Shown here: piece after piece, positions 3,455 through 44,568 of the stretch
Numbering within the stretch: the first letter of the stretch is position 1
How the letters are laid out: the number at the start of each line of letters is the position of its first letter
Source of the DNA: a virus
Taxonomy: Duplodnaviria; Heunggongvirae; Uroviricota; Caudoviricetes
DNA: 44,568 nt
IMG/VR virus record: IMGVR_UViG_2740892423_000027
Reading direction: 5' to 3' (one strand)
Program-made: the position numbers and the translations under genes
Notes under the pieces: generated by a model
Database searches by the model: none
The model's input: the letters and a program-made list of their open reading frames with translations, nothing else
What the model was told of the DNA's origin: nothing

Positions 3455-3457
3455 GCA

Positions 3458-3895: not shown

Positions 3896-3898
3896 TTT

Positions 3899-5293: not shown

Positions 5294-5297
5294 TTAC

Positions 5298-7079: not shown

Positions 7080-7558
7080 TTCTTCTTGCTCCCGGCTTTC
7101 GGCGTGACAATTTTTTCGTTGATGGTCGGGTCGTCTGAATGGTCATCGCGCCCCTTGGCCTGCTCTGCGCTGAATTCCATGTCACCTTCGTAGCCGATAC
7201 CGCTTTCGCGCAGTGTGTTATCCAGCGCGGCGACGGATGCCTGCCGGCGGTTATGAGCCCCGCGGGTCAGATGACCATCGTTATCGCGAATGGTTTTCTC
7301 AATAACGCTGGCGGAAACGGGTTTGTTGATGCTGTAGCACAGGCCGACAAATGCCTGGCTCTGGTCGATTTTGGTTGAGTCAACCAGACCGTAAACCTGA
7401 TGATGCTGAATAACCGCTTCGACTTCTTCGGTCGAGCCATCCAGAACCTGCATCTGTGAGCCGTGCTCAATGGGGATCTGGCGAAGGCGCCCGGTTTCCA
7501 GCTGGCGGAAAGTGAAGATGTGGCGCTGCTTGGTAGTGTTGGCGATGTACAGTTTCAT
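7076..7558 (-). CDS. Head-tail adaptor candidate (hypothetical)
   Basis: 160-aa ORF downstream of major capsid gene; coupled to following gene. Confidence 0.4.
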   Translation of the reverse strand: MKLYIANTTKQRHIFTFRQLETGRLRQIPIEHGSQMQVLDGSTEEVEAVIQHHQVYGLVDSTKIDQSQAFVGLCYSINKPVSASVIEKTIRDNDGHLTRGAHNRRQASVAALDNTLRESGIGYEGDMEFSAEQAKGRDDHSDDPTINEKIVTPKAGSKKK

Positions 7559-7630
7559 TGTTTACCCTTCGTAAAAAAGCCCCTGCACAGCGAACCATGC
7601 AGAGGCTTAAGCACTTCTCAATTTCGCGTT

Positions 7631-8662
7631 TTAGGAGCTGTATGCCATCGACAGGATGGTGATAGCTTCCGGACGGACTGCCCAGCCAGCCGTAGAGCGC
7701 ATTTCTGACAGCACGTCGATAGCGCCCCCGGGGATTGGCGTCGGGATTTCCATCGGTGCCGCCATGTCGGTGAACATCAGGGCATTAGCCGCCAGAGACG
7801 GGCTCAGTTTGGCGAATTCGTTGGTGTTCACGGTGGAGTTAACCATCGGCACTTCCACTTCCGGGATGGTGATAACCACCGCGTCAGTACCGCCGGCACC
7901 GGCGCCGATCAGCGTGTCGTCGTACACCCAGTCAACCTGAACATTCGCGCCACGGAGAACCTCTTTCACGGTGCCGCCGACGGTATCAGTACCGCCGCCA
8001 GGACGCTGATAAGATGTCAGCTGAACGATCTGCTGAATCTCCATCGCGCCCAGCACTCGCTGCGGCCCGAGGATAACAACACGCTGCTGGCGACCCAGTT
8101 GCATGGTGCGGGTCAGCGCGGCCTGTACATGGCCCAGCAGATAGACAGCCATCTGTCCATGGTCGTAGGTCAGCACAGTGGTGTTGCTGTTGCTGTCCGG
8201 CGGCAGGGTTTCGGTGGTCGCGCCTGCGGTGTTCAGCAGACCTTCGCCGCCTGCCGGGTTCATGCCGTACAGCAGCGCAGAACGCAACTGCTGGAAGATG
8301 CCCTGACGCATGCCGAGACGCTGAGCTTCTGGCAGTGCCACGTTCCAGTTACCGGCCGCCGCGGTGTCGTGGTGATCGTAGATACCACGGCAGCGGAACA
8401 GGTAGGTTGGAGTGGAGATCATGCGCGCCTCGAGCGCCACGCTCGGCAGCTGGTTGGCGTTGCCGGACTGGCTGGAGGTTACCTGGGTACGAATATCCAG
8501 GCGGCGCATATAAACGTACTGGTCGCCTACGCCAAGGCGGACCTGCGGGTTACCGCTGGCGATGGTTTCGAACGCACCGGACGCCTGCTGGTAACCAATG
8601 ATCAACTCCGGCGCAATATACGACGGGTTGACGATGGTGTAGCTGGGGGTAATTGCAGCCAT
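7631..8662 (-). CDS. Major capsid protein
   Basis: 343-aa ORF immediately after scaffold-like and decoration-like genes; size and position typical of a major capsid protein; strong RBS region; family not verified. Confidence 0.6.
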   Translation of the reverse strand: MAAITPSYTIVNPSYIAPELIIGYQQASGAFETIASGNPQVRLGVGDQYVYMRRLDIRTQVTSSQSGNANQLPSVALEARMISTPTYLFRCRGIYDHHDTAAAGNWNVALPEAQRLGMRQGIFQQLRSALLYGMNPAGGEGLLNTAGATTETLPPDSNSNTTVLTYDHGQMAVYLLGHVQAALTRTMQLGRQQRVVILGPQRVLGAMEIQQIVQLTSYQRPGGGTDTVGGTVKEVLRGANVQVDWVYDDTLIGAGAGGTDAVVITIPEVEVPMVNSTVNTNEFAKLSPSLAANALMFTDMAAPMEIPTPIPGGAIDVLSEMRSTAGWAVRPEAITILSMAYSS

Positions 8663-8675
8663 TTAAAGCTCCCGA

Positions 8676-9536
8676 TTAAAGTAAGACCAGCGCGCAGCTG
8701 TCGGTGTTGTTCCAGGTAAGGAAGCCCGTAGCGCTGTCATAGCTGACAGTTTTAGAGTTCCCACTCTCGATGGAGATGACTTTCACCGGCAGGGTGATGT
8801 CTGCCTGAGCCACAGCGCCGATAGCGCCCTGCGTGGTCGCGGAGCCGCCCGGCGCGCTGGCAGGCGCATAGGTGAAGGTTGTCGTACTCGGTACGGTCAG
8901 CACAACGACGGTGCCGTTATAGGCAGCCGGATCTACGCCGCTGATCTTCACGTACTGGCCTGCAGTCAGACCATGTGCAGAGGCAGTGGTGGCGGTGGCC
9001 ACGCCATTCGAGTAGGTAACAGCGGTCGTGTCAATGTCAGCACCGGAAAAAGCCGCCGCGGCTGCGGTGGTCACCTGGTTATTGACGAAGTCCCACGCCA
9101 GCGGCGTTTTCACCGATGCGCCAGCGGTTCCCAGTGCGACCACCTGCGCTGAAGCTTTCAGCGGAACGCGCATGTTGGAGCCAAGGCGATAGAATGAAAC
9201 GCTCATGCCGGACGCATACAGCGGAACTGGTGATTGCGGAGTGGTAAGCCCGTTGTGGGCCTGGTTGAAGACGGTGAAGCCTTCGAGCTCAGCCAGTGAT
9301 ACAGCGCGACGAATAGTCGACCCGCGAGGGCTGGAATTCACGCCGGACAGCAACTCGGCAACCGGCAGGCCACCCCACAGCGGTTTGGTTTCGGTGGCGG
9401 CGACAGTGCCGGAAGCCAGGTTAAAGCGGTTTGCCGGATCATCCAGAGCAACACCCTGAATGAAGCCATCAGACTGCACACCGAAGGAACCAGCGGCATT
9501 CGTGGTCGCCATCGGGTTAAGAGATAAATTAGCCAT
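8676..9536 (-). CDS. Capsid accessory/decoration-like protein
   Basis: 286-aa Ala/Thr/Gly-rich ORF between scaffold-like gene and major capsid gene. Confidence 0.4.
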   Translation of the reverse strand: MANLSLNPMATTNAAGSFGVQSDGFIQGVALDDPANRFNLASGTVAATETKPLWGGLPVAELLSGVNSSPRGSTIRRAVSLAELEGFTVFNQAHNGLTTPQSPVPLYASGMSVSFYRLGSNMRVPLKASAQVVALGTAGASVKTPLAWDFVNNQVTTAAAAAFSGADIDTTAVTYSNGVATATTASAHGLTAGQYVKISGVDPAAYNGTVVVLTVPSTTTFTYAPASAPGGSATTQGAIGAVAQADITLPVKVISIESGNSKTVSYDSATGFLTWNNTDSCALVLL

Positions 9537-9551
9537 GCTTCAGAGCTCCCG

Positions 9552-11168
<1,617 letters not shown>

Positions 11169-11177
11169 TTAATGCTC

Positions 11178-11999
11178 CTATGCTGCTTTCATGGACTCCA
11201 GGAACTTGCGGCCCTTCTGGGTCAGCATGTCCTCGGGAATGCTGCGGAGGTTGTACAGATAGGTGACGTAGCACCGACAGAAAACCTCTTCGCCAGGCTG
11301 CGTAATTTCGTCGAGATAGCCGGCAGGGCCAGCTTTGACATAGCCATTTTTCTGCGCCCAGTTCCCGCGGATGAGATAGATCAGCTTGTCCCTCTCCTTG
11401 TGATCTTCCCGGTAGTCGTACCCTGGCTGGCGCCAGTGGCTATGCCACTCGGCAGCAATCGCGTTGTTGCCCGTCGCGATGATGTTGTCGATATTGGCGA
11501 TCAGCTTATGGCTCTGGTCAATCATCACGCGGCGCGCTTCATAGTCCACCTTCTCGGCGGCCTTCTGAATGTGCGCCGCCGTCTCCCGCATCGTTCCCTG
11601 AATGCCGGTCAGCGCAATGCTGTCTGCTGAGGGAATGCTGCTGGCCCATCCGCTAAACCGCGACAGAGTAGTGTCGATGGCTTTCTTGCGATTCAGCTTT
11701 ATCAGGTCAACGCTGGCCAGGATGCGGCGATCCAGCTCGCTGCGTAACTTCGGCTCCATGTAGTTCAGCGTGAAGCGTGAAAGCCCCTTGTGGCGCTCCA
11801 GCGCTCCAGCCTTGCTCACCTGCAGGTCATAGGTCTTACGCAACCGATCGGACACCATGCTCATGTAGTCGTCATCAGTTTCGCTTTCGGCCGCTTGCCG
11901 GATAATGGCCTGCCATTGCTCCAGCTCCTGCCGCGAGGTGTAGCCATTGCGCAGAAAGAACTTCACCGCCTCGCGTACGGTGCGCGTGAAAGTCTTCAT
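11178..11999 (-). CDS. Head morphogenesis protein (minor head protein, Mu F / SPP1 gp7-like)
   Basis: 273-aa ORF directly downstream of portal with 4-nt overlap; conserved position of F-like morphogenesis genes; family assignment by position and weak recollection. Confidence 0.45.
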   Translation of the reverse strand: MKTFTRTVREAVKFFLRNGYTSRQELEQWQAIIRQAAESETDDDYMSMVSDRLRKTYDLQVSKAGALERHKGLSRFTLNYMEPKLRSELDRRILASVDLIKLNRKKAIDTTLSRFSGWASSIPSADSIALTGIQGTMRETAAHIQKAAEKVDYEARRVMIDQSHKLIANIDNIIATGNNAIAAEWHSHWRQPGYDYREDHKERDKLIYLIRGNWAQKNGYVKAGPAGYLDEITQPGEEVFCRCYVTYLYNLRSIPEDMLTQKGRKFLESMKAA

Positions 12000-13411
12000 A
12001 GCATCATCCCGCCGCCGGGCTCTTCATCCCGTGGCTGTTCAGGCCGGTTAGCCTTTAACGAGTCGATATCGAGATCAAGTCGCTGCGGGAACAGGCTTTC
12101 GTTAGCGTTCGCGTTGGTCTGCGCCCACTCGATAAGAAGCGCGCGGTTCTCATCATCCGTGTTGACCTGCGGGAGAAGGACTTCCAGCATGCTGACGATG
12201 GCCTTAAAGCGGATTTCGTCGACCTTCACTTTTTCGCTTTCCGGCTCTTTCAGGGATGACGGCCAGCGATATTCGAAGTTGTTAATCCATGAGGAGAAAT
12301 ACAGGCTGTACGTGTTTTTAAGCTCCGGGAAGTCAGCACGCAGAGAATTGAAAAACTCAATGCTCCAGGCGCGATACTGGCAAATACGGATGAAATAGTC
12401 ATACAGCGGCTCAAGCCACTCGCGGATGTTGTCGATGTAGACTGCAACAGATCGAGCGTCTTCCGTCCCCTCGCCGAAGCCCTGGGCGAATGTTTCCGAG
12501 TTCAGAATGATAGCCGGCATGTCAGCTGCCGCAGCGATATTCTCCAGAATGTGATTCCGGGAGGAGTCGAGCGGCTTTTCCAGGTTGCTCAGGTCGATGG
12601 ATTCGATGCTGTCATTTGCGCCGATCTGCAGGACCTCGCCTGTCTTCCCTCGCTTCAGCATCATTCGTTTGATGCCGCTGAGCTTTTGCATCATGTTGTT
12701 GACGACTGAGCTCGGTCCCTGAATCTTCGTTACCAGCAAGCCACCCTTCACGGAAACCATGTCATCGGTGCGCATGGTCTGGATGAAGGATTTCAGCGGG
12801 AACAGAGCGCGCTGGTAAACGCTGCGACCGGTAAAGCCAAAGGCAGCAGAGTTATAGGCCAGATAAATCGGGTCCTCGTTCTGTTGCACAACACAGCGGG
12901 ATTTGTGATACGGCTTGCCCGCCACTCTGATCCCGTCGACCTTCTGAAAGTCCTGCGCGTTCGGATCCTGGTTCAGGACGATGCTTCCGGCAGTGTTCAG
13001 CGGGTCGAGAATGTTGAATGTCACGTTGTGCTTATACAGCGTGCGGTAGTCCACCGCAGAGGACGGCTCCTGGTTATCAACCAGCATTGCGATCGCCGAA
13101 ACACCGTAAATGCGAGAGATGCGCGCCGCATTAGCGATGTGCTTATCGGCGCCCAGTGCTTTCCACTCCCGCTCAAATGCATCGCGGAGACGCTGCTCAA
13201 TGCCATACGCCTGCGAAATGTGAACCGTGCGCGACTCGTTCATCGCCATCTTGATCGGGCGATCTACCATTTTCCCGCCCAACGGGTGGAAGAGGTAAAT
13301 CGTTTTGCAGGTCTGATAGCCAGCCGACATACCCGGCTGAATGTCATCGCTGTCCAGGAGCGTGATCAGCTCCGGCGAGCAACTGCCGATTGCGATATCA
13401 TCTTCGTTCAT
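11996..13411 (-). CDS. Portal protein
   Basis: 471-aa acidic protein immediately downstream of terminase large subunit; conserved gene order. Confidence 0.6.
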   Translation of the reverse strand: MNEDDIAIGSCSPELITLLDSDDIQPGMSAGYQTCKTIYLFHPLGGKMVDRPIKMAMNESRTVHISQAYGIEQRLRDAFEREWKALGADKHIANAARISRIYGVSAIAMLVDNQEPSSAVDYRTLYKHNVTFNILDPLNTAGSIVLNQDPNAQDFQKVDGIRVAGKPYHKSRCVVQQNEDPIYLAYNSAAFGFTGRSVYQRALFPLKSFIQTMRTDDMVSVKGGLLVTKIQGPSSVVNNMMQKLSGIKRMMLKRGKTGEVLQIGANDSIESIDLSNLEKPLDSSRNHILENIAAAADMPAIILNSETFAQGFGEGTEDARSVAVYIDNIREWLEPLYDYFIRICQYRAWSIEFFNSLRADFPELKNTYSLYFSSWINNFEYRWPSSLKEPESEKVKVDEIRFKAIVSMLEVLLPQVNTDDENRALLIEWAQTNANANESLFPQRLDLDIDSLKANRPEQPRDEEPGGGMML

Positions 13412-13422
13412 TGGTTTTCTCG

Positions 13423-14754
13423 CTAGAGTGCGTCGCCGCTACCGAACGCGATGATCAGCCCGTAGGTGTAATCATCCAGCAAATCGTCGGCGCGCTTGTG
13501 CGCGTTCTTATCGGCAAGGTGGAATCGTGATACCTGCTTATGCAGATGGTTTGCTGTTTCGCCCTTGAAGACTGCCGTCTTCTCGTAGGCGTATCGGGAT
13601 ATTTTCGCCAGCCCGCGGTAGTGATACCCAGAGGCCATAATGGCGCGCTCGTCCTTCCCTTTGCTGGTCAGGGAGGATTCAATTTTGTTGACCGGCCATC
13701 CCAGGCTCTCGCCTTTCTGCAGAAGGATGCTTCCCATACTGGCGTCTTCAATGAAAACGCCGAGGCTGCCATTTACAGCGACGCACTGGCCGGATAGCTC
13801 ATTCAGCCGGGTGAAAACGGACGGAATCCACTCTTCCAGCAGCGCGCCGTCGATCTGCACCACATCCCAGTCAAGAATGGTCAGGCGCTGAATTCCGGGC
13901 CGGGTGTCTACGGCGTAGTAAACCACCGCCGTGCCGTCGTGATCAGTACCGCCCTTAACGGCGGTATCCATGACAGCGAAAACGGCCTGGCACATCTCAG
14001 GGTAATCGACAGGCTGATCCTGGTTTTCACCCTCGAACCATTTGCGGACGTCGAACAGCGACGCAGCGGACCAGTCGACGAACTCGGCCAGGAACTCCTG
14101 CCGGAAAACGCGAGGATCGTTGTTCTGTCGCTCTTTCTCCAGCTCCTCGGGAGGAACGAAGGGGTTTGATGACGTCGGCGCGTGATGCTCATGGAAGCCG
14201 AGGTCTTTGTTATGGCAGATGGCATAGAAGAAGTTTTCTTCATCCACACCGTCAGGCGTTGAGAATACGTAGGCCCGGCCTTTTGTCGTCAGTAGCGTCG
14301 GCTTAATCGACTTCGGCCAGATTTCCTTCAGCATTTCAGGCGACTTGGTAAAAGCCGCCTCATCGATCAGGATAATTTCGTACTCACGACCACGACCGGC
14401 CAGTTTGTTGTCGTTGGTGACCCAGAAGTCAATCTTCCCGCCGTTCTTCAGCAGCAGGCGCTTTTCCTGCCGGCTGAAACTCTTTTTCAGCGGCAACAGG
14501 ATTTCTTCCAGCTTGTCGTAGATCTCCTGGTACTGGCGATACTCGGCAGTGAAGATACCGACCCGGCCGCCCAGCTCGATGTCCATGCCCGGGCGCCGAA
14601 ACTGCGACGTTGCGTAGGTCACCGCGGCGCTCGACAGCATGAAGGTTTTCCCCCAGCGTCGACCACAGCGAACCGCATTCAACTGGTGATCCCAGGAATC
14701 AGACCAGACCGTTAACTGCCCGTTGTGTAGCGTGGGTAGGTAAATGTCGGCCAT
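13423..14754 (-). CDS. Terminase large subunit
   Basis: 443 aa; N-terminal Walker A-like GRRWGKT; C-terminal nuclease-like acidic residues; follows small subunit gene. Confidence 0.85.
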   Translation of the reverse strand: MADIYLPTLHNGQLTVWSDSWDHQLNAVRCGRRWGKTFMLSSAAVTYATSQFRRPGMDIELGGRVGIFTAEYRQYQEIYDKLEEILLPLKKSFSRQEKRLLLKNGGKIDFWVTNDNKLAGRGREYEIILIDEAAFTKSPEMLKEIWPKSIKPTLLTTKGRAYVFSTPDGVDEENFFYAICHNKDLGFHEHHAPTSSNPFVPPEELEKERQNNDPRVFRQEFLAEFVDWSAASLFDVRKWFEGENQDQPVDYPEMCQAVFAVMDTAVKGGTDHDGTAVVYYAVDTRPGIQRLTILDWDVVQIDGALLEEWIPSVFTRLNELSGQCVAVNGSLGVFIEDASMGSILLQKGESLGWPVNKIESSLTSKGKDERAIMASGYHYRGLAKISRYAYEKTAVFKGETANHLHKQVSRFHLADKNAHKRADDLLDDYTYGLIIAFGSGDAL

Positions 14755-17784: not shown

Positions 17785-17860
17785 TGGTGCTGGTTAACGG
17801 ACTTGAACCGCTACCCATTCGCTTACAAGGCGACTGCTCTACCATTGGAGCTAAACCAGC
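17785..17860 (-). tRNA. tRNA-Thr (anticodon UGU), phage-borne
   Basis: Manual cloverleaf: 7/7 acceptor pairs, 4-bp D stem, anticodon stem with loop CUUGUAA, T-loop UUCAAGU, encoded 3' CCA; folded by hand only. Confidence 0.7.
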
Positions 17861-17865
17861 ATGTT

Positions 17866-17940
17866 TGGCGGGACAGCGTGGACTCGAACCACGATAAGAA
17901 GGTTAACAGCCTTCCGTAATGACCTTTATACGACTGACCC
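17866..17940 (-). tRNA. tRNA-Asn (anticodon GUU), phage-borne
   Basis: Manual cloverleaf: anticodon stem GAAGG/CCUUC with loop CUGUUAA, T arm CGUGG-UUCGAGU-CCACG, encoded CCA; one mismatch each in acceptor and D stems. Confidence 0.55.
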
Positions 17941-18004: not shown

Positions 18005-18523
18005 CTAAATGGATAATTGCATGTCAAGGCCTTTAACAGCAACATGCTTAACTTTCTCAACACGTTTACGCATTTTGAAAGCATTTTGCATTGGCTGGTA
18101 CAAAACAAATAACGACGCTTTCAGGATGTCGTCAATTTCGTTTCTACAGGTTGCCAGTGAAGGTTTTCTCCATCCCTCGCCACCACGTCCACACATCTTG
18201 CGTGGCTTTGCAGTCGCGTGATAGTAGGATGCAATTGCTCGCTTAGATGAACCATGAGCGTAGTAGCTTAGGAGGATGCCAAAGGCTTTCTTGTCAATGT
18301 ACATGACGGAATCGACGACCTGAGAAATCAACATTCCATCATCATCATTACACATTGGCCTTGTCATAACTCTTCCCGGCTCTACGCTCTCCATGAACTT
18401 CGCTATTACGCTGCTCATGCGCTTTTCCAGACGACCTGAATAAACCCATGCGCCCCACAGTTCAAGCCAGCCATTCAGCCACTCATGCTGTTCTTTGGTG
18501 AGGTTTAGTTCTCTTATGCCCAC
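18005..18523 (-). CDS. Late-gene antiterminator Q (Phage_antitermQ / QuuD-82-like family)
   Basis: 172 aa with [11 protein letters not shown] and RPMCNDDD motifs resembling QuuD-type Q proteins; canonical position between nin/phosphatase genes and the lysis cassette. Confidence 0.65.
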
Positions 18524-19185
18524 GCGCCTTCTCCCTGTACCTGAATCAATGTGAGGTTTCCGCAGAACACTGCGCCGGTATCGATATACATCTGGTTGGC
18601 AAATTTGAGTGGTTTCACTGCTGGCGTATGACCAAAGATGAACGTGTCCGCGCCTTTGATTTCTTTCACGATCCCGTCTTGTGAGTTGCCGATTCGTTCG
18701 CGGTTCCAGATTACCTGCTGATGATCAACTGGCTTTCCAAACTCGTATTCATCACAAGGATAATCGGCGTGGCAAATGACATATTTTTTACCTTTGCTCA
18801 CCAGTTCGATGATTAACGGAAGTTCTTCTGCTTTATGGGCAAGAGCTTTAGCCAGAATCTCTTTGTCGTAATCGAGATTGAAGAACCAGCCACCGCCATT
18901 AAGCAGCCAGTGATTAACGTTTCCACGCTCTGATAAGCCATCAATCATCATTTGCTCATGGTTTCCACGTACAGCTCTGAACCAGGGGAATGTGATTAAT
19001 TCCAGGCATTCAACGTTCTCTGCACCACGATCAACCAAATCTCCCACCGAGATAAGCAGGTCTTTTTTGTTGTCGAATCCAATCGTATCCAGTTTGTTCA
19101 TCAGGTTCGTGTAGCATCCGTGCAGATCGCCAACTACCCAAATATTTCGGTATTTGCTGCCATCAATTCTTTCGTAGATATTCAT
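18514..19185 (-). CDS. Ser/Thr protein phosphatase (lambda PPase, NinI-like)
   Basis: 223 aa near-identical to lambda phosphatase: [22 protein letters not shown] and GNHE metallophosphatase motifs. Confidence 0.9.
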
Positions 19186-19787
19186 GCAGCCTCACTTCTG
19201 CTGTTTCGCAGTTTTTTAAGTTTCTGTTGATACTCCGCCTTGATGGTCCTGCACTCTTCGACAGTCCAGCGATGGCGGTTATGGTTTGATTCGATTTCGT
19301 CTACTGCTTCCTGCCCGATGCGGCTAATCAGTTCGACGCGATACGGAACGAGATTTCCGCTTTTGTGCTGGTTGCACACCACGCATTGCTTGTGAATATT
19401 GCGTTCATCAAATCGGAGTTGAGGTGCCGCAGCAGTTGTCCGGTAATGTCCGGCATCCCACTGAGCAGACGTGAGCGTTCCGCACGAGATACATGGTAAG
19501 TCGCGGTCTCTTTCTCTGATGAAGGCGTTTACGGCTTGTTGGGCTTGTTTAATCCAGTAACTGCGGTGCTTTAAGGCGAGTTTTCGAATCTTCAGTTTAT
19601 CTTTCTGTTTCTGCTCCTCTCGTCGTCGTTTCTTCTCTGCTGCTTTTTCCGCTTTTTTTCGCTGTTTACTTTGTAGTTTGAGTGCTAACTGAGTTCCGTG
19701 TTCCGGGCAGCACCACCACTGATTTGAGAATGCCGGGTGAAACCATTCCTTGCATATTTTGCATTTCCTTCGCGCTGGTTTAGCCAT
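19182..19787 (-). CDS. ninG: NinG (Rap) recombination protein
   Basis: 201 aa, N-terminus [31 protein letters not shown] characteristic of lambda NinG; ATGA coupling to phosphatase gene. Confidence 0.9.
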
Positions 19788-33650: not shown

Positions 33651-33851
33651 ATGCAACACGAACTACAGCCTGATTCCCTGGTTGATTTGAAATTCATCAT
33701 GGCCGATACTGGCTTCGGTAAAACCTTCATCTATGACCGGATTAAGTCCGGAGACCTGCCTAAAGCCAAAGTTATCCACGGGCGAGCAAGATGGTTATAT
33801 CGTGACCATTGTGAATTCAAAAATAAGCTCTTAAGCCGCGCCAATGGGTAA
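33651..33851 (+). CDS. Excisionase / AlpA-family small DNA-binding protein (putative Xis)
   Basis: 66 aa; FIMADTGFGKTFIYDRIKSGDLPKAKVIHGRARWLYRDHCEF fits AlpA/Xis-type HTH pattern; directly upstream of integrase. Confidence 0.5.
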   Translation: MQHELQPDSLVDLKFIMADTGFGKTFIYDRIKSGDLPKAKVIHGRARWLYRDHCEFKNKLLSRANG

Positions 33852-33900
33852 AATAGCGGGTAAAATATTTCTCACATCTAAAAAACACCATTCCAATCAA

Positions 33901-33934
33901 TCCCCTGCTGCTTCAAGTAGATGTCTGCAGGGGA
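33901..33934. repeat. Inverted repeat TCCCCTGC..GCAGGGGA in xis-int intergenic region
   Basis: 8-bp perfect arms with 18-nt loop; no T-run following. Confidence 0.5.
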
Positions 33935-34050
33935 CACTTTAAAGACCTTTCTCTACATTTCACTTCATTACATAACCACTTAAAAAACAGTAATTTATCA
34001 CCGAATCGGCCTGATTTTCATTTCAGTTAATTTCATGACATTACAACCTC

Positions 34051-34100
34051 GTGATGGTATAAGTGATGGTATTCCCCAGTTCGATATGCAGATACCATCA
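34051..34100. promoter_or_regulatory. GTGATGGTAT repeats (2 direct, 1 inverted) immediately upstream of int: candidate Int/regulator binding sites
   Basis: GTGATGGTAT at 34051-34060 and 34063-34072; inverted ATACCATCA at 34092-34100; int ATG at 34111. Confidence 0.45.
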
Positions 34101-34110
34101 ATTTACCAAA

Positions 34111-35397
34111 ATGAGTACAGATATGGCCATTAATGTGCTTTCCCCCAAACAGATAGAAAACGCCAAGCCGAAGACCAATGATTACAAACTTACCGATGGA
34201 GGGAGTTTGTATCTACTGGTACGAAAGACTGGTGGAAAATACTGGCGTATGAATTATCGTTTTGATGGAAAACAAGTGACATTGGCATTAGGGGTCTACC
34301 CAGATGTCTCACTTGCAACAGCGCGGAAACGGCGTGATGAAGCCAGGCAACTACTAGCCGATGGTCGTGATCCTCGCGAAGCAAAGAAACCCAAAAAGGA
34401 AGACCCAATTTCCCCCACGTTCGAGAGTGTTGCCAGAGAGTGGCATAGTGGAACGATGGGGCATCCTGAGTGGAAAGAGATCACCCGTAAAAAAATTCTC
34501 CGAGAAATGGAAAACCACCTCTTTCCTGCCATCGGTTCAAAGCCTATCGATACGCTCAAAACCCGTGACTTGATGCCGATGCTGGTTGAGATGACTGAGA
34601 AAGGAATTGGTGCCACAACGAGCCGGGTAAAAACCACTATGACGAGCATCTTCCGTTATGCCGTGCAACGTGGAATTGTCGATTACAACCCTGCCCACGA
34701 TCTAAAAGGTGCAATTACGGCCCCCAAAGTACGACATCGCCCCGCACTACCTCTCGAACGTTTACCTGAACTGTTAGCGAAAACGAGAAGTTACACGGGA
34801 AGACCATTGACTCGCCTAGCAGTTCTCTTTTCCCTGCACACTTTTGTGCGATCCAGCGAACTACGACATGCCAGATGGGAGGAGATCGACATTGAAAATG
34901 GGCTATGGACGATACCAGGACAACGTGAAGAGATCGCAGGGGTTAAATTCTCAGATCGGGGTGCAAAGATGGGGGCTGCTCATTATGTCCCGCTATCTAG
35001 TCAGGCTATCGGGGTACTGGAGGATATAAGGAAAATCAGTGGTGAATATCTGCTGGTTTTCCCCGGTGACAGCAACCCATATAAACCGATGAGCGAAAAC
35101 ACAGTTAATAAAGCACTGCGAACGATGGGTTACGACACTCAAACTGATGTATGCTTGCATGGGTTCAGGGCGATGGCCTGCTCTGCACTGACCGAATCAG
35201 GACTCTGGTCACGCGATGCAGTTGAACGGCAGATGAGTCACCAAGAAAGAAACGAAGTGCGGGCAGCATATGTGCATCTTGCGCAGCACATGCAGGAACG
35301 CCGCAGAATGATGCAATGGTGGTCTAATTATCTGGAACTAAATAAGGACGAATTTCATGCTCCTTATGACTTATCAGGTATTAACATTATCAATTAA
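34111..35397 (+). CDS. int: Tyrosine integrase, P4/CP4-57 type with N-terminal arm-binding domain
   Basis: N-terminus AKPKTNDYKLTDGGSLYLLVRKTGGKYWRMNYRFDGK (DUF4102-type); C-terminal catalytic region with HGFRAMACSAL and RAAYVH...; start 34111 or 34123. Confidence 0.9.
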   Translation: MSTDMAINVLSPKQIENAKPKTNDYKLTDGGSLYLLVRKTGGKYWRMNYRFDGKQVTLALGVYPDVSLATARKRRDEARQLLADGRDPREAKKPKKEDPISPTFESVAREWHSGTMGHPEWKEITRKKILREMENHLFPAIGSKPIDTLKTRDLMPMLVEMTEKGIGATTSRVKTTMTSIFRYAVQRGIVDYNPAHDLKGAITAPKVRHRPALPLERLPELLAKTRSYTGRPLTRLAVLFSLHTFVRSSELRHARWEEIDIENGLWTIPGQREEIAGVKFSDRGAKMGAAHYVPLSSQAIGVLEDIRKISGEYLLVFPGDSNPYKPMSENTVNKALRTMGYDTQTDVCLHGFRAMACSALTESGLWSRDAVERQMSHQERNEVRAAYVHLAQHMQERRRMMQWWSNYLELNKDEFHAPYDLSGINIIN

Positions 35398-35427
35398 ATA
35401 CTCTTATAATTTAAAACAGAGGTCATA

Positions 35428-36309
35428 ATGCAGCATTCAACAGAGAATGAAACTATATTCTTAGGAAATCTATGGATTGACAAAAAAATACCACCATTAG
35501 AATATTGTTCATTTGAACGCGCTTCAAGATTATTAGAATGCGAGATTGATGATTTATTACACCTATACGAAATAGGCGCTTTTAATATCGCATTCAAGGC
35601 GGATGGACTTGCAGTTAGATTTAATGTTAATTTCCTCAATAAAAATCAGAAAATGGAAATTGACTTAATTCATCCCGTATTAACTAATCAATCACTAGAG
35701 ATGGAGTTTTCAACAATATGGTATGACCTTAAAGATGATTCCTTTGAACATTTTGAAAATGGGCTTCAAATTATAGGATTTGCCTGTGGTATTTGGTACG
35801 CCGATGATATGATAAGTGACATAAAAAATGGATTAGCTATAGATCCAGATTATGAATTCAGGCTTAAACCGGTAAAAATACGAGATAATGTTTTGATGGC
35901 AACGGCCTCATATGAAGGAAATAAGGTCATTGATATTCCATTTGAAGATCTTCTTATCATGCGAAGAGATTTAGAGTTAATATGGAAATCAGTAAAAACT
36001 GGAATTCCTATGCCAAGTTTACTTACGAAAAGAATTTCATCTGAACCTAAAATCCCCAAGCGATTAAATAACACTGCTGAGCATCATGCAAAAAATAGGG
36101 AGGGGTTATTAAATGCAGCCATATATATTTTAGCAAAATACCCAAGCGAATGTCGTGGTGAAAGAAAAGAGATAAGTCCTGAAAAGTGGACTAACGCCAT
36201 AATTAAACATTTAGGAGAGCTACCTCCAATATTTATCACTAATGAACAAGAAATCTTAAGAAAATTACGATTAGCGGTTAATCATGCGGGGTTAAAACAA
36301 AAGGGGTAG
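35428..36309 (+). CDS. Hypothetical AT-rich cargo protein (293 aa) between int and alpA
   Basis: Starts 31 nt after int stop, AGAGG upstream; strongly AT-rich; no recognisable motif. Confidence 0.55.
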   Translation: MQHSTENETIFLGNLWIDKKIPPLEYCSFERASRLLECEIDDLLHLYEIGAFNIAFKADGLAVRFNVNFLNKNQKMEIDLIHPVLTNQSLEMEFSTIWYDLKDDSFEHFENGLQIIGFACGIWYADDMISDIKNGLAIDPDYEFRLKPVKIRDNVLMATASYEGNKVIDIPFEDLLIMRRDLELIWKSVKTGIPMPSLLTKRISSEPKIPKRLNNTAEHHAKNREGLLNAAIYILAKYPSECRGERKEISPEKWTNAIIKHLGELPPIFITNEQEILRKLRLAVNHAGLKQKG

Positions 36310-36411: not shown

Positions 36412-36627
36412 ATGACATTAAAAACTTATCCTATCACTGGACATGCCCGCCCACGAGCTACTGCTGACTTTTTGCAAATAAGTACGGTTACTCTCTGGCG
36501 CTGGGAAAAGAACAATCCTGAATTTCCCAAATCTATACGCATTTCAAAACGGGTATCTGTTTACGATGCACAAGAAATTAGGCAGTGGGTTAAAGCTCAA
36601 TCAGCAGGATTGGAGGAAGTAGTGTAA
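36412..36627 (+). CDS. alpA: AlpA-family transcriptional regulator (prophage CP4-57-type)
   Basis: 71 aa; FLQISTVTLWRWEKNNPEFPKSIRISKRVSVYDAQEIRQWV matches AlpA HTH pattern. Confidence 0.8.
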   Translation: MTLKTYPITGHARPRATADFLQISTVTLWRWEKNNPEFPKSIRISKRVSVYDAQEIRQWVKAQSAGLEEVV

Positions 36628-36904: not shown

Positions 36905-37537
36905 ACAGAAAAACAAAATAGCAACGCCCCGGAGTGTTTGCAGCAGCACCGAGGCGTCTGACCAGCACGTTATATGAGGTAACGAAGATGGCTAAACAGA
37001 AGTGTACCTGGTTATTTGCGGCGATCAACCGCAGTCAACGTAATGCCCGTCCGGTGATGTTAAGGATCATCGCAGATAACGAACGATCAGCGCGGCGCAG
37101 ACTTGCCCCGGACTATGTACTGAGCTTTGCCGGGCGCATTCCCTGCGGAGGTGAACATGCGTAATTATCCGCACCCCGGCGAACGCTGGCAGCATGAACG
37201 TGGCTGGACGGTCACGATTATCCGATTAATAGAAGCCTGGCGCTGGTTAATCCTGAATTCAGCTGTGAAGTGCTGATACGTCATGACAGCGACAACCAGC
37301 TATCCTCCTGCCCTCTGGCATGGTTTGAACAGCGGTATACGCGCCTGTTTGATGTACCGCTCTTTAAGCCTGCACCAGCTCCTGCAGGCGGTAGTGGTTC
37401 CGGCCCGCTGACACTGCATCCGTCTGTGCTATTTATCCGCTGGCGGGAGCGTAGCATATGGCGCTCTGCTGAGCCTGACGACGGTCACTATTCAAAGTTT
37501 CTCTGACAAAATACCGCTGAAAACGGAGTAATCCACG

Positions 37538-37822
37538 ATGAATATTTCAAACGGGCACAACGGTGCTCAGGGCCACACTTTGCCTGAAAAACACAATACC
37601 GGTGCTTTTGCCTATGGGTTGTCAGAGGACAGTTTCGGAAAGCTGACCCGCGCAAGAAATGCCTGCGACATGCTCCAGCTTCTCTTTTCTGAATACCCGT
37701 CTCAGGCCGGAGCACTGGACGCTGGCTGTGCGCATGGTGTCGCCGCGCTGATGGAGTACCTGCTGGCAGATTTGACGGATATTGCACACAGCTGCGCACT
37801 GATTGAAGGAGGTGCCAGATGA
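37538..37822 (+). CDS. Hypothetical protein, first of three translationally coupled genes ending in primase
   Basis: 94-aa ORF; stop overlaps next start (ATGA) at 37819-37822. Confidence 0.45.
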   Translation: MNISNGHNGAQGHTLPEKHNTGAFAYGLSEDSFGKLTRARNACDMLQLLFSEYPSQAGALDAGCAHGVAALMEYLLADLTDIAHSCALIEGGAR

Positions 37823-38202
37823 ACCAGCCGCAGGTTTCCATTTTCCCGGCAGAAATGACCACCGCGCTTTACCGGCGGGCTATTGCTTCAGCATGGCGGC
37901 AGAAAATGCTGAACGAAACTGGCAGTGATCAGTATGGTCCGCACAGCCTGACGGTGGAGCGTATTGAAATGGCCATTGCGCTGCATATCGAGTGCGTACT
38001 GATTAACGAGTACGGCGAAGTGCAGGGCGCCGCTGCCGCGCTGGCACTGCTGACTGACATGCTGGAGCCGTCACTGCTGACCGCGCCGCCGGTACTGACC
38101 GCGCGCGGCTGTGAAGTGATGGCGGAGATGTACCGCACGCTTCCGGCGGCCTTTGATGACTTCTGCAGTACCGGTGTGACGTTGTATGAGGGGGAAGTAT
38201 GA
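37819..38202 (+). CDS. Hypothetical protein upstream of primase (epsilon position)
   Basis: 127-aa ORF; ATGA overlap with both neighbours. Confidence 0.45.
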   Translation: MNQPQVSIFPAEMTTALYRRAIASAWRQKMLNETGSDQYGPHSLTVERIEMAIALHIECVLINEYGEVQGAAAALALLTDMLEPSLLTAPPVLTARGCEVMAEMYRTLPAAFDDFCSTGVTLYEGEV

Positions 38203-40871
38203 CAATACAGACGGTTACGCAGATTTCAGCCGCCGCACGGGGGAAATGGCCCGTTATTCTGCAGATGCTGCGTATTGATGTACCTGAAAACGGCAGGCAC
38301 GGTCCCTGCCCGAAATGTGGGGGCAAGGATCGTTTTCGCCTTGATGACCTTGACGGGCGCGGGACGTGGATCTGCAGCCAGTGTGGCAATGGTGACGGTC
38401 TGGATCTGGTTAAGCTCGTAACCGGTTACAGCGTCAGAAAGGCTGCGCAGGAGGTGGCGCAGGTGCTTAATGTGCCGGATGTGCAGGAACTGCCTGTTAA
38501 GCCTGCCAGACAAAAAGCCCCTAAACGCGACATGGGTCTTACCGTGGCGGCGCTGATGAAAGAGAGCCACACGGGAGAAAGCGCCTATCTGACAGGAAAA
38601 GGGTTCGCCGGATACCCGGCCTCTCTGACCGGAAGCGTGCAGCATATCAGCGGTAAGGATTTTCCTGCCGGTTCCCTGCTGTTACCACTCACGACCAACA
38701 CCGGAGCCGTGACCGGTGCACAGCTTATCGCCCCGACGGGTGAAAAAAGCATACTGCCCGGCAGCACGATGAAAGGCGCGTTTGTGTCGCTCAGCCCGTT
38801 ACCGTCTGAACCACCGGTACAGGTGGTGATTACCGAAGGTTACGCTACGGCGCTGACGGTAAGCCAGCTCACTGCCGGATGCGTAGTGGCTGCCATATCT
38901 GCGGGCAACCTGCCCAATGTGGCGCAGTCGCTGCGGGCACGCTGGCCTGAGGTAAAAATTATCATCGCCGGTGATAACGATTTTCAGGACGGGGGTGAGA
39001 ATCCCGGCAGAGCCTTTGCTGAACGGGCGGCAAAAGCTGTTGGCGGCTGGATGACGCTGCCACCAGGAGAGATTAAGGCTGACTGGAATGACTTTCATCG
39101 GGAGCACGGTATTACCCGTGCCCGTGAAGCCTTTCGCAACGGTCTGGTACTGTGCGGGGAAGGCCGCACGCAACTGCCGCACGGGTTCCGTCTTACCCAG
39201 GAATATCTCTGGTATGAAAAGCAGGTACAGCGCAACGGTGAGACGGAGATCCAGAACGTCAAAATATGCAGCCCGCTGCGCGTGACGGCAATCACCTGCG
39301 ATGCCGATGGCGGTAACTTCGGACGACTGCTGGAATGGGAAGATACGTGGGGTGAGTGTCGCCGCTGGGCGATGCCGATGGAAATGCTGAGCGGCAGTGG
39401 TGAGGAACTGCGCCGGGTACTGCTGGTTAACGGGCTGTCTTATATCAGCACCACCGGTGAGGCACGCGCACGCCTGATGGAATATATCTCACTGTGTAAA
39501 CCGGAACGCCGCGTGACCTGCGTCAGTCGTACTGGCTGGCATGGTCAGGTTTACGTCCTGCAGGATGAGGTCAGCGGTGAAGGTGCAGAGGGTGTCATTC
39601 TCCAGACCACTTCCGTGCAGGGGCGTGATTTCCGCGTGTCGGGCACAACAGAGGAATGGCGGGAGCATGTATCCCGCTACTGTACCGGCAACTCCCGCGT
39701 GGCATTTGCTGTCAGCCTGGCCTTTGCTGCACCACTGTTACGGCTGGTTGGTATGGACGGCGGCGGCTACCACCTCAAAGGGGAATCGACAGACGGTAAG
39801 ACCACCACCATGAAAGCGGCAACCTCCGTCTGCGGCGGGCCTGACTACTGGCAGACATGGCGGGCCACCGGCAACGCGCTGGAGGGATGCGCCAGCCGCC
39901 GCAACGATGCCGCCATGATGCTTGATGAGATCCGGGAAGTTGACGGACGCGAGGCAGGCAATATCGCCTACATGCTGGCAAACGGTCAGGGCAAGGGCCG
40001 TGCCGGTACGGACGGTGAGCTGCGTACCCGTAAGCAGTGGCGCCTGTTGTTCTTTTCAACTGGCGAGTTGTCTCTGACCGAACATGCGGCAAAGGCCGGT
40101 GAGCGTACTTTTGCCGGGATGGAAGTCAGGATGATCCAGATCCCCAGCGATTCCGGGAAGTTTGGCGTTTTTGAGGAGCTGCACGGCTTCGACAGCGGCA
40201 AGGCTCTGGCAGAGCATCTTGAATGGGCCACGTCCTGCTACTACGGTTCGCCGTTCCGGGAGTGGCTGAAAGCACTGACCGCTGATCTTAACGGACTAAC
40301 GGCACAGGCAAAATCGCTGATGAAGGAATATGCTGCCGCCCTGACTCCTAAAGATGCAGGCAATCAGGTGGGCCGGGCTGTGAACCGCTTTGCACTGGTG
40401 GCGATGGCAGGTGAACTGGCAACCCGTCTGGGTATCACCGGCTGGCCTGAGGGTGAAGCACTGCGGGCAACCCGCGTCTGCCTGAACGCATGGCTGAAAG
40501 ATCGCGGGCACACCGCCAATCAGGAAGATATCGCCGCACTGGAGCAGGTTCGCAGTTTCTTTACCGCGAATCAGTACAGCCGCTTTGCAGACTGGTATGA
40601 CGAGCGCAACCGCCCCGGCAATATGGTGGGCTGGCGCAGGGTGGAGAAAGGCAGTACCGCGCAGGGCACGGAAGCTATCACTACGTTCTATGTCATGCCG
40701 TCCGGCTGGAAAGAAATCTGCAGGGGATTTGACCCGCGCAAGGTGGCGCGTCTGTGCGTAGATCGTGGATACCTGCTGCCCTCCACTGATGGCAAACTCC
40801 AGACAACCATTCGCCCGCCAGAGATGAATCCCCGCAGGCTCTATGTCTTCAACAGCGAGGTGCCGGGTTAA
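38199..40871 (+). CDS. Primase-helicase, P4 alpha type (zinc-binding N-term, TOPRIM primase, D5-like helicase)
   Basis: 890 aa; N-terminal CPKCGG...CSQCGNGDG zinc ribbon; TOPRIM-like ITEGYATAL...IIAGDND; C-terminal P-loop region HLKGESTDGKTT. Confidence 0.85.
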   Translation: MTIQTVTQISAAARGKWPVILQMLRIDVPENGRHGPCPKCGGKDRFRLDDLDGRGTWICSQCGNGDGLDLVKLVTGYSVRKAAQEVAQVLNVPDVQELPVKPARQKAPKRDMGLTVAALMKESHTGESAYLTGKGFAGYPASLTGSVQHISGKDFPAGSLLLPLTTNTGAVTGAQLIAPTGEKSILPGSTMKGAFVSLSPLPSEPPVQVVITEGYATALTVSQLTAGCVVAAISAGNLPNVAQSLRARWPEVKIIIAGDNDFQDGGENPGRAFAERAAKAVGGWMTLPPGEIKADWNDFHREHGITRAREAFRNGLVLCGEGRTQLPHGFRLTQEYLWYEKQVQRNGETEIQNVKICSPLRVTAITCDADGGNFGRLLEWEDTWGECRRWAMPMEMLSGSGEELRRVLLVNGLSYISTTGEARARLMEYISLCKPERRVTCVSRTGWHGQVYVLQDEVSGEGAEGVILQTTSVQGRDFRVSGTTEEWREHVSRYCTGNSRVAFAVSLAFAAPLLRLVGMDGGGYHLKGESTDGKTTTMKAATSVCGGPDYWQTWRATGNALEGCASRRNDAAMMLDEIREVDGREAGNIAYMLANGQGKGRAGTDGELRTRKQWRLLFFSTGELSLTEHAAKAGERTFAGMEVRMIQIPSDSGKFGVFEELHGFDSGKALAEHLEWATSCYYGSPFREWLKALTADLNGLTAQAKSLMKEYAAALTPKDAGNQVGRAVNRFALVAMAGELATRLGITGWPEGEALRATRVCLNAWLKDRGHTANQEDIAALEQVRSFFTANQYSRFADWYDERNRPGNMVGWRRVEKGSTAQGTEAITTFYVMPSGWKEICRGFDPRKVARLCVDRGYLLPSTDGKLQTTIRPPEMNPRRLYVFNSEVPG

Positions 40872-41271: not shown

Positions 41272-42015
41272 ATGAACAACACCGCAGTGAATATCAACCT
41301 TTCCACTTTTCCGGCTGTAACGCAGCGGGCACTGGAAACCATGAACACAGCCAGAAACGCATGGCTTGAAGCACGTCGTCAGCAGAAAGCGGCAGCGGAT
41401 AATATTGCGACAATCCGCCAGCGTCGCGCTGAAATGGAAGCCACGACGAACACACTGAATGAGGAGTGGCGCACGCTGTTTCGTGAAAGTCAGGGCGTGG
41501 TCTCAAAGGAAATGAAAAAACTGCGCACGGAAATTGCGCTGGGACGAGAAACGCTTGAGGATTTTGATGAGCTGCTGGCGGCTCAGGAAAGCGAAAATGC
41601 ACTTTTGCCGCAGAAAGCTGCGGAATTAGCCGGAAAGTATATCCACGCGCATAACATTCTTGTGGATATTCGCGCAAAACAAATCTGGGAAGATTTTATG
41701 CAGTCGCATGGAAAAGCGCTTATTCAGACGCTGAGCCTGCTTAAATCCACAATGGGCCGGGAAGCCAGTGCCGTTGTGGGTGTGGTGAATTCAGTTAATG
41801 ACCCGGACACAGTGCTGAAAGACTTTATTCATAAACATATCACCAGACCGGCTCTGGCTAACGATGCGATGCCTGAACAGGACCCGGTGTTTAAACTGGC
41901 GGGAGTTGCCCCGGATTATGCGGCGCGTCTGGATTTCAGTAATCAACTCTCTCCGGCAGCTATGCATAAAATAAAGGTTCGTCAGGAACTTGCTGAGAAG
42001 GAGAAAGCAGTATGA
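41272..42015 (+). CDS. Sid-like capsid size-determination protein (putative)
   Basis: 247-aa helical ORF immediately upstream of and coupled to psu; size matches P4 Sid; assignment by position and size. Confidence 0.45.
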   Translation: MNNTAVNINLSTFPAVTQRALETMNTARNAWLEARRQQKAAADNIATIRQRRAEMEATTNTLNEEWRTLFRESQGVVSKEMKKLRTEIALGRETLEDFDELLAAQESENALLPQKAAELAGKYIHAHNILVDIRAKQIWEDFMQSHGKALIQTLSLLKSTMGREASAVVGVVNSVNDPDTVLKDFIHKHITRPALANDAMPEQDPVFKLAGVAPDYAARLDFSNQLSPAAMHKIKVRQELAEKEKAV

Positions 42016-42563
42016 CGGCCCGAGGCACACCTGACCAGGCACTTACCAGTTTTCGGAATGCCCGTATTCTGTGGGCCGGACATAGTGAGAGCCGAAAAGC
42101 CGTTGAACAACAGATAACATCTCTCCTCGCTGCCACAGAAAAACCAGCAGATTATGCCCGACAGCTCGAATTACTGCGGGAACGTCTGGATGTGCTGAAA
42201 TGGCAAATTAACTGTGCTGCTCGGGAATGCATTTACTCGCAGCATTTATTGATGGAGGCCTGCACAGAAGCTGCTCTCAGCAATTTTATGCAGGCGAATG
42301 GGGCAGCCCTGACATCTGCACTGGCTCCGTTCCTGAAGGGGCGCGGAGGGGTTGACGTTGCGTCCCGTATATTACGCAGTGCTCTGGTTCGCCAGCTGGC
42401 AATAACACCGCCTGAAATTGCCGGGGATTATCGTGAGATCCTGGATGAATCCGGTTTGATGCCAGACCCCGGGATGATTCGTGATTGCCAGGGCTCTTAC
42501 ACCCCGGCACAACATCTGCGTTTTCAGCAACGCCTGAATGACATTAACGATATACAGGAGTGA
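42012..42563 (+). CDS. psu: Polarity suppression protein Psu
   Basis: 183 aa; LKWQINCAARECIYSQH, FMQANGAALTSALAPFL and YTPAQ segments parallel P4 Psu (RKWQVNQAAGRYIRSHE, FMQQHGTALAAALAPEL, FTPAQ). Confidence 0.8.
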   Translation: MTARGTPDQALTSFRNARILWAGHSESRKAVEQQITSLLAATEKPADYARQLELLRERLDVLKWQINCAARECIYSQHLLMEACTEAALSNFMQANGAALTSALAPFLKGRGGVDVASRILRSALVRQLAITPPEIAGDYREILDESGLMPDPGMIRDCQGSYTPAQHLRFQQRLNDINDIQE

Positions 42564-42568
42564 TATTA

Positions 42569-42841
42569 ATGGCACTTAAATGTCCGGAATGCGGTACAGT
42601 TGCACACGCCAGAACAGCAGCCTATGAAGCTCCGTCAGTTAAACGCTCGTGGTATCAGTGCCAGAATCTGGAATGTTCCTGCACATTTACGGCACTGGAG
42701 AGTGTGGATAAGATAATCATGAAACCCCGGCGCAATGAACAGGAACCAGACAAATCACAACCCCCGGTAAAACAACAGCAAACGCTCAATCGCTATGGCT
42801 CCGCGTCAAAACTGTCAAGCCGTCAGCAGATTCCTATCTGA
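42569..42841 (+). CDS. Ogr/Delta-family zinc-finger late-gene activator
   Basis: MALKCPECGTVAHARTAAYEAPSVKRSWYQCQNLECSCTF parallels P2 Ogr (MFHCPLCQHAAHARTSRY...ERYHQCQNVNCSATF); ATG 42569 after CAGGAG. Confidence 0.8.
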   Translation: MALKCPECGTVAHARTAAYEAPSVKRSWYQCQNLECSCTFTALESVDKIIMKPRRNEQEPDKSQPPVKQQQTLNRYGSASKLSSRQQIPI

Positions 42842-42888: not shown

Positions 42889-43104
42889 ACACCTTTTCCC
42901 TGGCTGGCCTGAGAGCGCATGAGTGCATGTCTATGGCGCATGAAAACGCATGAGCCTTATGCACCATTTTTGACGAGAAAGCCCTTGTGTGGTGGCTTCT
43001 GAGACGATTTATGAGGTGCATGAAAACCAGTCTGTTAAGCGAAGCGGGCAGGCGTGCGGGGCTGCCCGCGCAGAAGGAGAAAGAGGTGTATTCAAAGTAT
43101 TTTT

Positions 43105-44568
43105 CTACCCATGACATTTTTTGAATTTTTTTCCTGATCCACAATAGCAAGGCTCATTTCTTCCCATTTTTTTTTCATTATTAACTATAGGGAATGTAGA
43201 CATATATGATGTCGGCTTAGGCAAGATGTCTGTAAGAACGCTATACTCCTTCATGGATTTTTTCGCTAATAAGCGCTCATCCTTTGTAAGTGGCTCATCA
43301 AACTTACAATAAACAACATCTTCAGAACGGCCCTCAGAATCTTTGCTTTCCGTTGCAATAATTATCAACTTCTTAATTTGACTGTATTTATACTTCGCCA
43401 CTAGTGCATACATTTGCACACAAGAAAAACGCTCCAATCTATATTTTTCATATGATAACCCTTCATCACGCGGAAAGAACAAAAAAATATAATATTTGCC
43501 TTTTTCGTCAATCGACTCAACAATCCTAGAACTTCTTCTATTAGTAGGAACCTGTTTGAACTTTTCTATAAATGCCTTAGAAAGATGATATCTTGACACT
43601 CTGCTTTCTGCTGCCAGTTGTCTAACTGTTTCCTCATGACTATGAAAGTCATTTTCTATACCCAAACCTACAGTTGCAGTAAGAATTGATTCCGAAAGTC
43701 TCTGTATCATTTCATCCCAAAACACACTTCCTTTTTTCATTGCCTTGTAATAATCATACTGAGGAGATTTTTTTAACACTTCCCACTCATTTTCTGCTAT
43801 TTGCACAAATGTATTTTCAGGTACCAATTTCTCATCTACAATCACTCCATGCCCGCTCAAATATGCAGCCAAAGTATCATCTTCTCCTGGACTTAATCTC
43901 AGAAGGCCAGAACGGACAACACGTTCCTTCTCTTTCAAGTAACTAACAAAGTCAGTAATTGTATCTAACTCCGACAATAAGAGATTTAATGACAATTCAT
44001 CTAACACATGAACAAATGTTTTATTTGGATAAATATCTCCAATGGAAAAAGGTTGCTCCATACTTTCCTTTATTCCAAATGAGAAAACATTCATGAGAGT
44101 ACCAGAACTCCCTTCAGCTATACGTGAAAAGAAATTAGATGCAGGAACCGAACTATTATTGGTTACAGCGATAAGGAAAAACCTCATATCTCTATTTATT
44201 TTAACTGGAAAGGGAACTTTGCATTTTTTATCTAAGAACAATCGTCCATGATGATCTTTTAAAAACTTCTCTGCCCCATGTAACTGAACAGCCGATTCAG
44301 TTATGGATTTTTTAAACCATCTTTTCCATGCTACAGAAACTTCAATCTCTTCGTTAAAGTTAATATCCTTATCTGAAAATAAAATCACATTATTTTCAAA
44401 AACAACTAATAAATCACACACCTCCTTCCCCGATTTGTTTTTAGAAAGCCCTTCATCACTATACACATTAGGATATGACCATAAACCAATAAACGCACTA
44501 TTAGCCAGTTCTATTAATCTTTTTTCAGTTTGATTAACTCCCTGCCCTTTGTTAATCACTTTTAACAT
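43105..44568 (-). CDS. AT-rich cargo protein with C-terminal SEC-C zinc-binding motif (487 aa; defence candidate); start coincides with last base of window so N-terminus may be longer
   Basis: C-terminus ends [14 protein letters not shown] (SEC-C motif); strongly AT-rich, antisense to satellite late operon; N-terminal region has a D..E..DK-like pattern ([17 protein letters not shown]) that could be nuclease-like but is unverified. Confidence 0.6.

Follow-up and report, generated by a model that had tools for sequence, protein, structure and literature searches.

The window analyzed in this study, a stretch of 44,568 nucleotides of virus DNA, places the end of a lambdoid prophage next to a P4-like satellite with an integrase gene between them, and this locus raises the question to which of the two elements the integrase belongs. 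Two answers had been offered by the original prediction: either the integrase completes the early-left operon of the lambdoid prophage, or it belongs to the satellite in the gene order integrase, ORF and alpA, leaving the prophage without an adjacent integrase. The observations underlying this prediction were partly confirmed and its interpretation is partly supported, with the second alternative being the correct one. The arrangement is best explained by two independent integrative elements that very probably reside in tandem at one attB site, the 3' end of the tRNA-Arg gene argW, with the integrase being that of the satellite and separate from the phage integrase IntS. The full order of the locus, the ends of which are located outside the window, reads yfdC, argW, intS, prophage, xis (torI), core, satellite int, satellite, core and the dsdC side.

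The right-hand ~34 kb of the lambdoid prophage occupies positions 50-33937, with the late genes on the minus strand and the early-left operon on the plus strand, and terminates at an att core. Over positions 50-14754, the prophage shares 95.8% identity with Klebsiella phage Chronis, and its PHROG matches include a tail sheath, a portal, a terminase, a Q antiterminator and a CI repressor. The xis-like gene noticed previously at 33651-33851 (plus strand) indeed encodes an excisionase of the TorI/HkaC/Sf6 gp18 type (66 amino acids, PHROG 66) that is identical to the product of Sf6 gene 18 in 66 of 66 residues. The gene is annotated as torI in RefSeq genomes and is found where the prophage ends in attR, with 73 bp separating it from the core. 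At the other side of the prophage region, positions 1-49 of the window represent the end of a multicopy insertion sequence, presumably IS2, with matches in 4,455 of 5,426 E. coli genomes as well as on plasmids; phage homology starts at base 50, inside what is a small gene of the tail region in the related SW07096 prophage. Since the insertion sequence end interrupts the prophage, the latter may be defective or no longer viable. Genes for tRNA-Thr(TGT) and tRNA-Asn(GTT) are located at 17785-17940 (minus strand), between the Q antiterminator and the lysis genes, and the SW07096 prophage is annotated with the same pair.

The P4-type integrase was likewise recognized correctly by the original prediction. 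It is a tyrosine integrase with the three Pfam domains Arm-DNA-bind_3, Phage_int_M and Phage_integrase and is encoded on the plus strand at 34123-35397. An ATG at 34123 is the best-supported start of the gene, as RefSeq annotates identical genes from this codon and the alignments of the integrase to P4 Int and to Sf6 Int both begin here. Consequently, the gap between xis and int, previously given as 259 bp, does exist but measures 271 bp. In the same way, satellite genes with Pfam and PHROG matches do follow the integrase, and the next ORF begins at 35428, at a distance of 30 bp.

A visible att or tRNA junction had been reported as missing from this region. In fact, the 13-bp sequence CTGCAGGGGACAC at 33925-33937 (plus strand) corresponds to the 3' end of argW, comprising the 3' half of the T stem and the 3' acceptor strand, and it is located at the boundary between phage and satellite homology. 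This is the only copy in the window, and no second one was detected there with one mismatch allowed, which places the satellite attR outside the window. Scanning the window with ARAGORN yielded only the phage-borne tRNA-Thr and tRNA-Asn genes; a tRNA fragment of 13 bp is invisible to this program, which may explain why the core had been missed.

The two sides of this core have different relatives. In a search of phage records, Sf6, HK620, Kapi1 and Louie, among others, matched the window up to position 33937 and no further, whereas a search of complete genomes revealed satellite-only E. coli genomes that match from 33925 onward with up to 99.9% identity and that carry argW directly to the left of the integrase gene. 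At base level, the window and the Sf6 attP site are identical for at least 150 bp leftward of the core and for 0 bp rightward, whereas the satellite-occupied argW (satellite attL) shows the reverse, with 50 bp of identity rightward of the core and 0 bp leftward. The attR site of KplE1 in strain K-12 is a 100% match to positions 33852-33937 and ends there as well. Since the Sf6 and KplE1 matches on one side and the satellite-only matches on the other side meet at the core, these comparisons identify the gap between xis and int as a hybrid att site that reads as phage attR to the left and as satellite attL to the right. When the core of the IntS/TorI module was examined, 13 of the 16 bases of the Sf6 attP core were found to be kept at 33925-33937, and satellite sequence takes the place of the last three, which is what a hybrid site should show. 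Compared with the native attR, the right flank of the hybrid core differs at 2 of 16 core positions (CACCAT to CACTTT), and this change might lower excision by IntS.

Both the inverted repeat and the GTGATGGTAT motifs that had been described for the gap were recovered, in the form of two inverted repeats and three TGATGGTAT matches. One of the inverted repeats is a perfect 8-bp repeat, TCCCCTGC/GCAGGGGA, at 33901-33908 and 33927-33934 with a spacer of 18 nt; it is part of the phage attP, overlaps the core and is identical in Sf6. The other one is made up of the tandem and inverted copies of the GTGATGGTAT motif. A promoter scan of the gap revealed nothing useful, and no terminator-like site was predicted between xis and the satellite int.

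The identity of the phage half of the hybrid site also indicates where the integrase of the prophage is to be sought. In the KplE1/HK620/Sf6 module, attP is located between xis and int (PMC2951348), and the integrated form carries intS at attL, with a promoter overlapping the att site, and torI at attR (PMC2951348, PMC3509656). The annotated order in Sf6 is xis (gene 18), the 16-bp attP core and int (gene 16). As attP lies between the two genes, integration sends intS to the far end of the prophage beside argW, and the prophage's own IntS gene is expected ~40 kb away, adjoining argW, beyond the start of the window. The complete genome of strain 44, which contains the same hybrid junction, carries argW-intS at the far prophage end, in the order yfdC, argW, intS, prophage, torI, hybrid site, satellite int, P4-like genes and satellite attR. 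The SW07096 prophage, which has the same late genes as the window, shows the order yfdC, argW, intS and tail genes, and its IntS is 98% identical to Sf6 Int. The phage arm of the hybrid site contains two tandem copies of GGGTAAAATA with a period of 12 bp at 33846-33867 (plus strand); the 8-mer GGGTAAAA begins at 33846 and 33858 and occurs in the window to the left of the core only. In the Sf6 attP region, the same 8-mer is present twice on this arm and three times directly upstream of int, and a total of 7 copies was counted in 5.4 kb versus 0.18 expected. By analogy with this layout, the GGGTAAAATA repeats are putative arm-type sites of IntS on the phage P arm. The absence of right-arm GGGTAAAA copies from the window is as expected if these are located beside intS outside the window.

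On the satellite side of the core, (G)TGATGGTAT occurs three times at 34051-34100 (plus strand), as two tandem copies and one inverted copy. The longer motif GTGATGGTAT is found at 34051-34060 and 34063-34072 with an inverted copy at 34092-34100, and the exact matches to TGATGGTAT at 34052, 34064 and 34092 (inverted) are the only three in 44.6 kb, versus 0.35 expected. In the satellite-only genome at locus L001, all five exact copies of TGATGGTAT in 21.6 kb flank the two satellite cores: 9129, 9141 and 9169 (minus strand) near attL, and 20093 and 20105 near attR. Each arm thus carries a tandem pair of the motif with a period of 12 bp, and an inverted copy directly precedes int. The copies are located 50 and 115 nt from the core, compared with 53 and 112 nt for the annotated attP arm repeats of P4. 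We regard the TGATGGTAT motifs as predicted arm-type binding sites of the satellite integrase, with those of the window forming its P' arm.

Several lines of sequence comparison assign the integrase to the satellite rather than to the prophage. The protein shares 52% identity with P4 Int versus 31% with Sf6 Int, the arm-motif layout and spacing resemble the P4 attP, and TGATGGTAT recurs as a tandem pair by the other att site of the satellite in L001. Moreover, a 21-bp direct repeat, TTCGATTCCTGCAGGGGACAC, at positions 8993 and 20166 of L001 bounds an element of 11.2 kb that begins in argW, contains the same integrase together with the P4-like genes and ends before dsdC. The original prediction had stated that it would be refuted by att direct repeats placing the integrase and the satellite genes inside a single element; the L001 repeat does so for these genes, and the refutation thus holds in part.

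The genes downstream of int are those of a P4-like satellite according to their domain and family matches, as all six members of the core set int, alpA, alpha, sid, psu and delta were matched by Pfam and PHROG. The length of 11.2 kb in L001 also agrees with the ~10-12 kb over which this set is grouped in such satellites. An AlpA-family DNA-binding protein (36412-36627, plus strand; PF05930, E = 1.6e-7) is likely the excision or regulatory factor of the satellite. The 890-aa alpha-like primase/helicase (38199-40871, plus strand) matches Zn_Ribbon_Prim, Toprim_3 and DUF927 in Pfam as well as PHROG 1139 and is 38% identical to the primase region of P4 alpha. The genes for a Sid-like protein, Psu and an Ogr/Delta zinc-finger protein (41272-42841, plus strand; Pfam and PHROG matches) form a module for capsid size and late-gene hijacking, with Psu and Sid being 30% and 24% identical to their P4 counterparts. 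In addition, an Icd-like ORF and a DUF5375 protein were identified by Pfam and PHROG. One small ORF of 94 aa (37538-37822) was compared with P4 epsilon and showed no similarity. Directly upstream of this ORF and the DUF5375 gene, a 10-bp deletion at ~37237-37238 relative to PM4 and 2023CK-01509 frameshifts a satellite ORF of 119 aa. The ORF that follows the integrase (35428-36309, plus strand, 293 aa) is conserved in satellite-only genomes, had no match in Pfam, PHROG or PADLOC, and may represent accessory cargo; the stretch containing it between int and alpA is low in GC (0.38 for 35001-36000).

The assignment of the integrase to the satellite has to be weighed against other readings of the locus. 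That the integrase completes the lambdoid early-left operon in a P22-like xis-int arrangement, with the satellite's own integrase located elsewhere, has next to no probability in our assessment. The two genes are indeed on the same strand, 271 bp apart and free of a terminator-like site between them, and they are also neighbours in the free Sf6 genome, but it is precisely in Sf6, HK620 and KplE1 that attP separates them, as the att core does in the window. All phage records terminate at 33937, the integrase is closer to P4 Int than to Sf6 Int, the motifs upstream of int recur at the far end of the satellite, and the presence of the same integrase directly beside argW in satellite-only genomes, with no phage adjoining, refutes this operon. 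An origin of the junction by homologous recombination or by an assembly error instead of site-specific integration is extremely unlikely. Lambdoid prophages are mosaic and recombine frequently, but the breakpoint falls exactly on the 13 bp that are common to both attP sites and argW, with perfect phage sequence to the left and satellite sequence to the right, and 10 complete records from independent assemblies share this junction.

The adjacency could also have been selected, the two elements forming one composite mobile unit or a functional pair of helper and satellite, and a helper-type phage beside a satellite had indeed been proposed. Junctions of this kind recur in about 21 of 5,426 complete E. 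coli genomes, the same hybrid junction being complete in at least 10 records and a related junction being present in 11 more; all three att sites are in direct orientation in related genomes, and no predicted terminator would stop transcripts that run from xis into the satellite int. We nevertheless consider this reading very unlikely, as the predicted arm sites are specific to each element and the satellite, in most of its copies, occupies argW by itself. In P4, the targets of Sid, Psu and Delta are P2-type capsids and Ogr-dependent late promoters. The satellite encodes counterparts of all three, whereas the features of a P2-type helper, a gpN-family capsid and late activation of the Ogr type, were not found in the prophage: its capsid showed no similarity to P2 gpN and its late control is exerted by a Q antiterminator, so that it is not a P2-type helper. 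The neighbouring phages also differ in kind. A different prophage was present beside the junction in both records checked: the phage adjoining the satellite in strain 44 is P22-like according to the RefSeq annotation, as opposed to the sheath-encoding phage of the window, and a lambdoid prophage adjoins an IS1-truncated remnant of the satellite in ETEC1720. The common factor among the tandem pairs is the argW site and not the kind of phage, and prophage and satellite are adjacent because they share this attB site and not because of a helper-satellite relationship.

A further case is provided by the ST131 strain 4993 (L008, 6800-8424), in which the torI end of a prophage is located directly beside a different integrase gene, followed by sce7725/sce7726, Ogr/Delta and DUF927 genes. 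To judge from this gene order, a second P4-like lineage is also found in tandem with argW phages. None of the complete E. coli genomes covered at least 80% of the right half of the window. Tandem integration of prophages and other integrative elements at one site of the E. coli chromosome has been documented at several loci (PMC9997748), and tandem P4-like elements have been noted as well (PMC8628076). The arrangement is therefore an instance of ordinary, already known tandem integration, to which the present analysis adds a clean dissection of a hybrid att site.

For two independent elements in tandem at argW, the architecture of the middle site suggests how each of them would leave. This site would consist of the phage P arm (two copies of GGGTAAAATA), the shared 13-bp core and the satellite P' arm (three copies of TGATGGTAT), and the arm sites cognate to each integrase would be confined to the surroundings of the element that encodes it. 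IntS together with TorI would recombine the argW-side attL with the hybrid site and release only the phage, so that argW becomes joined to the satellite, which is the state seen in PM4 and 2023CK-01509. Conversely, the satellite Int would recombine the hybrid site with the satellite attR and release the satellite alone, leaving a normal phage attR, the state seen in KplE1 of K-12. Excision of a composite would not be favoured by the arm architecture, and independent excision of the two elements is what we infer from it. The phage attL and the satellite attR are located beyond the window, and hence the complete arrangement of three sites is visible in related genomes only. The predicted sequences are argW (ending in GGGGACACCA) followed by intS beyond the window start, and two copies of TGATGGTAT followed by TTCGATTCCTGCAGGG(G)ACACCATCC beyond the window end; from L001, the satellite attR is expected ~0.5 kb past the end.

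As the crossover takes place within the shared 13 bp, both orders of arrival give the same product and the order cannot be read from the junction. Parsimony favours the phage as the second arrival, since the satellite-only genomes among the matches listed (99.1-99.9% identity) have it as the sole element at argW, and the phages that adjoin it differ between strains. With xis and int sharing a strand and no terminator predicted in the gap, antiterminated transcripts of the early-left operon of an induced prophage could cross the hybrid att site into the satellite int, although we consider this unlikely. If it did so, a phage that is not a helper would trigger expression of the satellite integrase, and possibly excision, by tandem placement alone.

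Among known systems, the prophage resembles the KplE1 (CPS-53)/HK620/Sf6 module in its xis, identical to Sf6 gp18, in the P arm and core, which equal the Sf6 attP and, up to 33937, the KplE1 attR of K-12, and in the split layout, which puts xis and int at opposite prophage ends. It differs from this module in that attR is flanked on its host side by the arm of a resident satellite, with 13 of 16 core bases kept, and it differs from Sf6 in that the remainder of the phage is Chronis-like in the late genes and encodes a tail sheath. The satellite shares with P4 and P4-like satellites the gene set of int, an AlpA-type regulator, an Icd-like ORF, DUF5375, alpha primase, Sid-like, Psu and Delta, and with P4 itself an Int of 52% identity, integration at the 3' end of a tRNA gene, and an attP in which each arm has two tandem repeats with a period of 12 bp and a further, inverted repeat precedes int, the distances from the core being nearly equal to those in P4. 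Unlike P4, which targets leuX and uses the arm motif TGGGGGCA, it targets argW and carries TGATGGTAT; furthermore, the C-terminal part of its alpha protein is of the DUF927 type, and its Psu and Sid are only 24-30% identical to those of P4. Other tandem elements of E. coli, such as the two at leuX and the O157 prophages, likewise share an attB site and are arranged head to tail with a hybrid att site between them, whereas the present pair combines a lambdoid phage with a P4-like satellite, the integrases of which are 31% identical and use different arm sites.

These data resolve an annotation puzzle, as an xis gene followed by an integrase gene in a prophage need not belong together: in lysogens of phages with the Sf6/KplE1 module, the integrase beside xis is always that of another element. 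Arm motifs flanking a short tRNA-derived core provide a practical way to assign the ownership of an integrase and to predict excisable pieces. Otherwise, the locus represents a routine case of competition between two mobile elements for the hot spot at argW.

Some additional observations concern the far end of the satellite and the argW gene itself. A 487-aa SEC-C/YecA-like cargo gene (43105-44568, minus strand) is located inside the satellite in a second low-GC stretch (GC 0.37 for 43001-44000); PADLOC matched only the C-terminal SEC-C motif, and the same gene is found in L001 at 18192-19655, inside the 21-bp direct repeats. The position between delta and the satellite attR is variable, being occupied by this gene in the window and by a different one in strain 44. 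The attR core of the satellite lacks one G (CTGCAGGG-ACAC) relative to attL in PM4, strain 44 and ETEC1720 (G-less cores at L006 20166, L004 2391 on the minus strand and L009 15249). Finally, the 3' end of argW varies with the adjoining element, as deduced from a comparison of L001 8941-9016 with L005 2987-3064. With the satellite alone at argW, the tRNA gene ends in ...GGGGACAC|TTT, the encoded CCA is lost and the gene is annotated with 72 nt, whereas beside an IntS-type phage it reads ...GGGGACACCA|TTT with 75 nt, the encoded CCA being restored by the phage.
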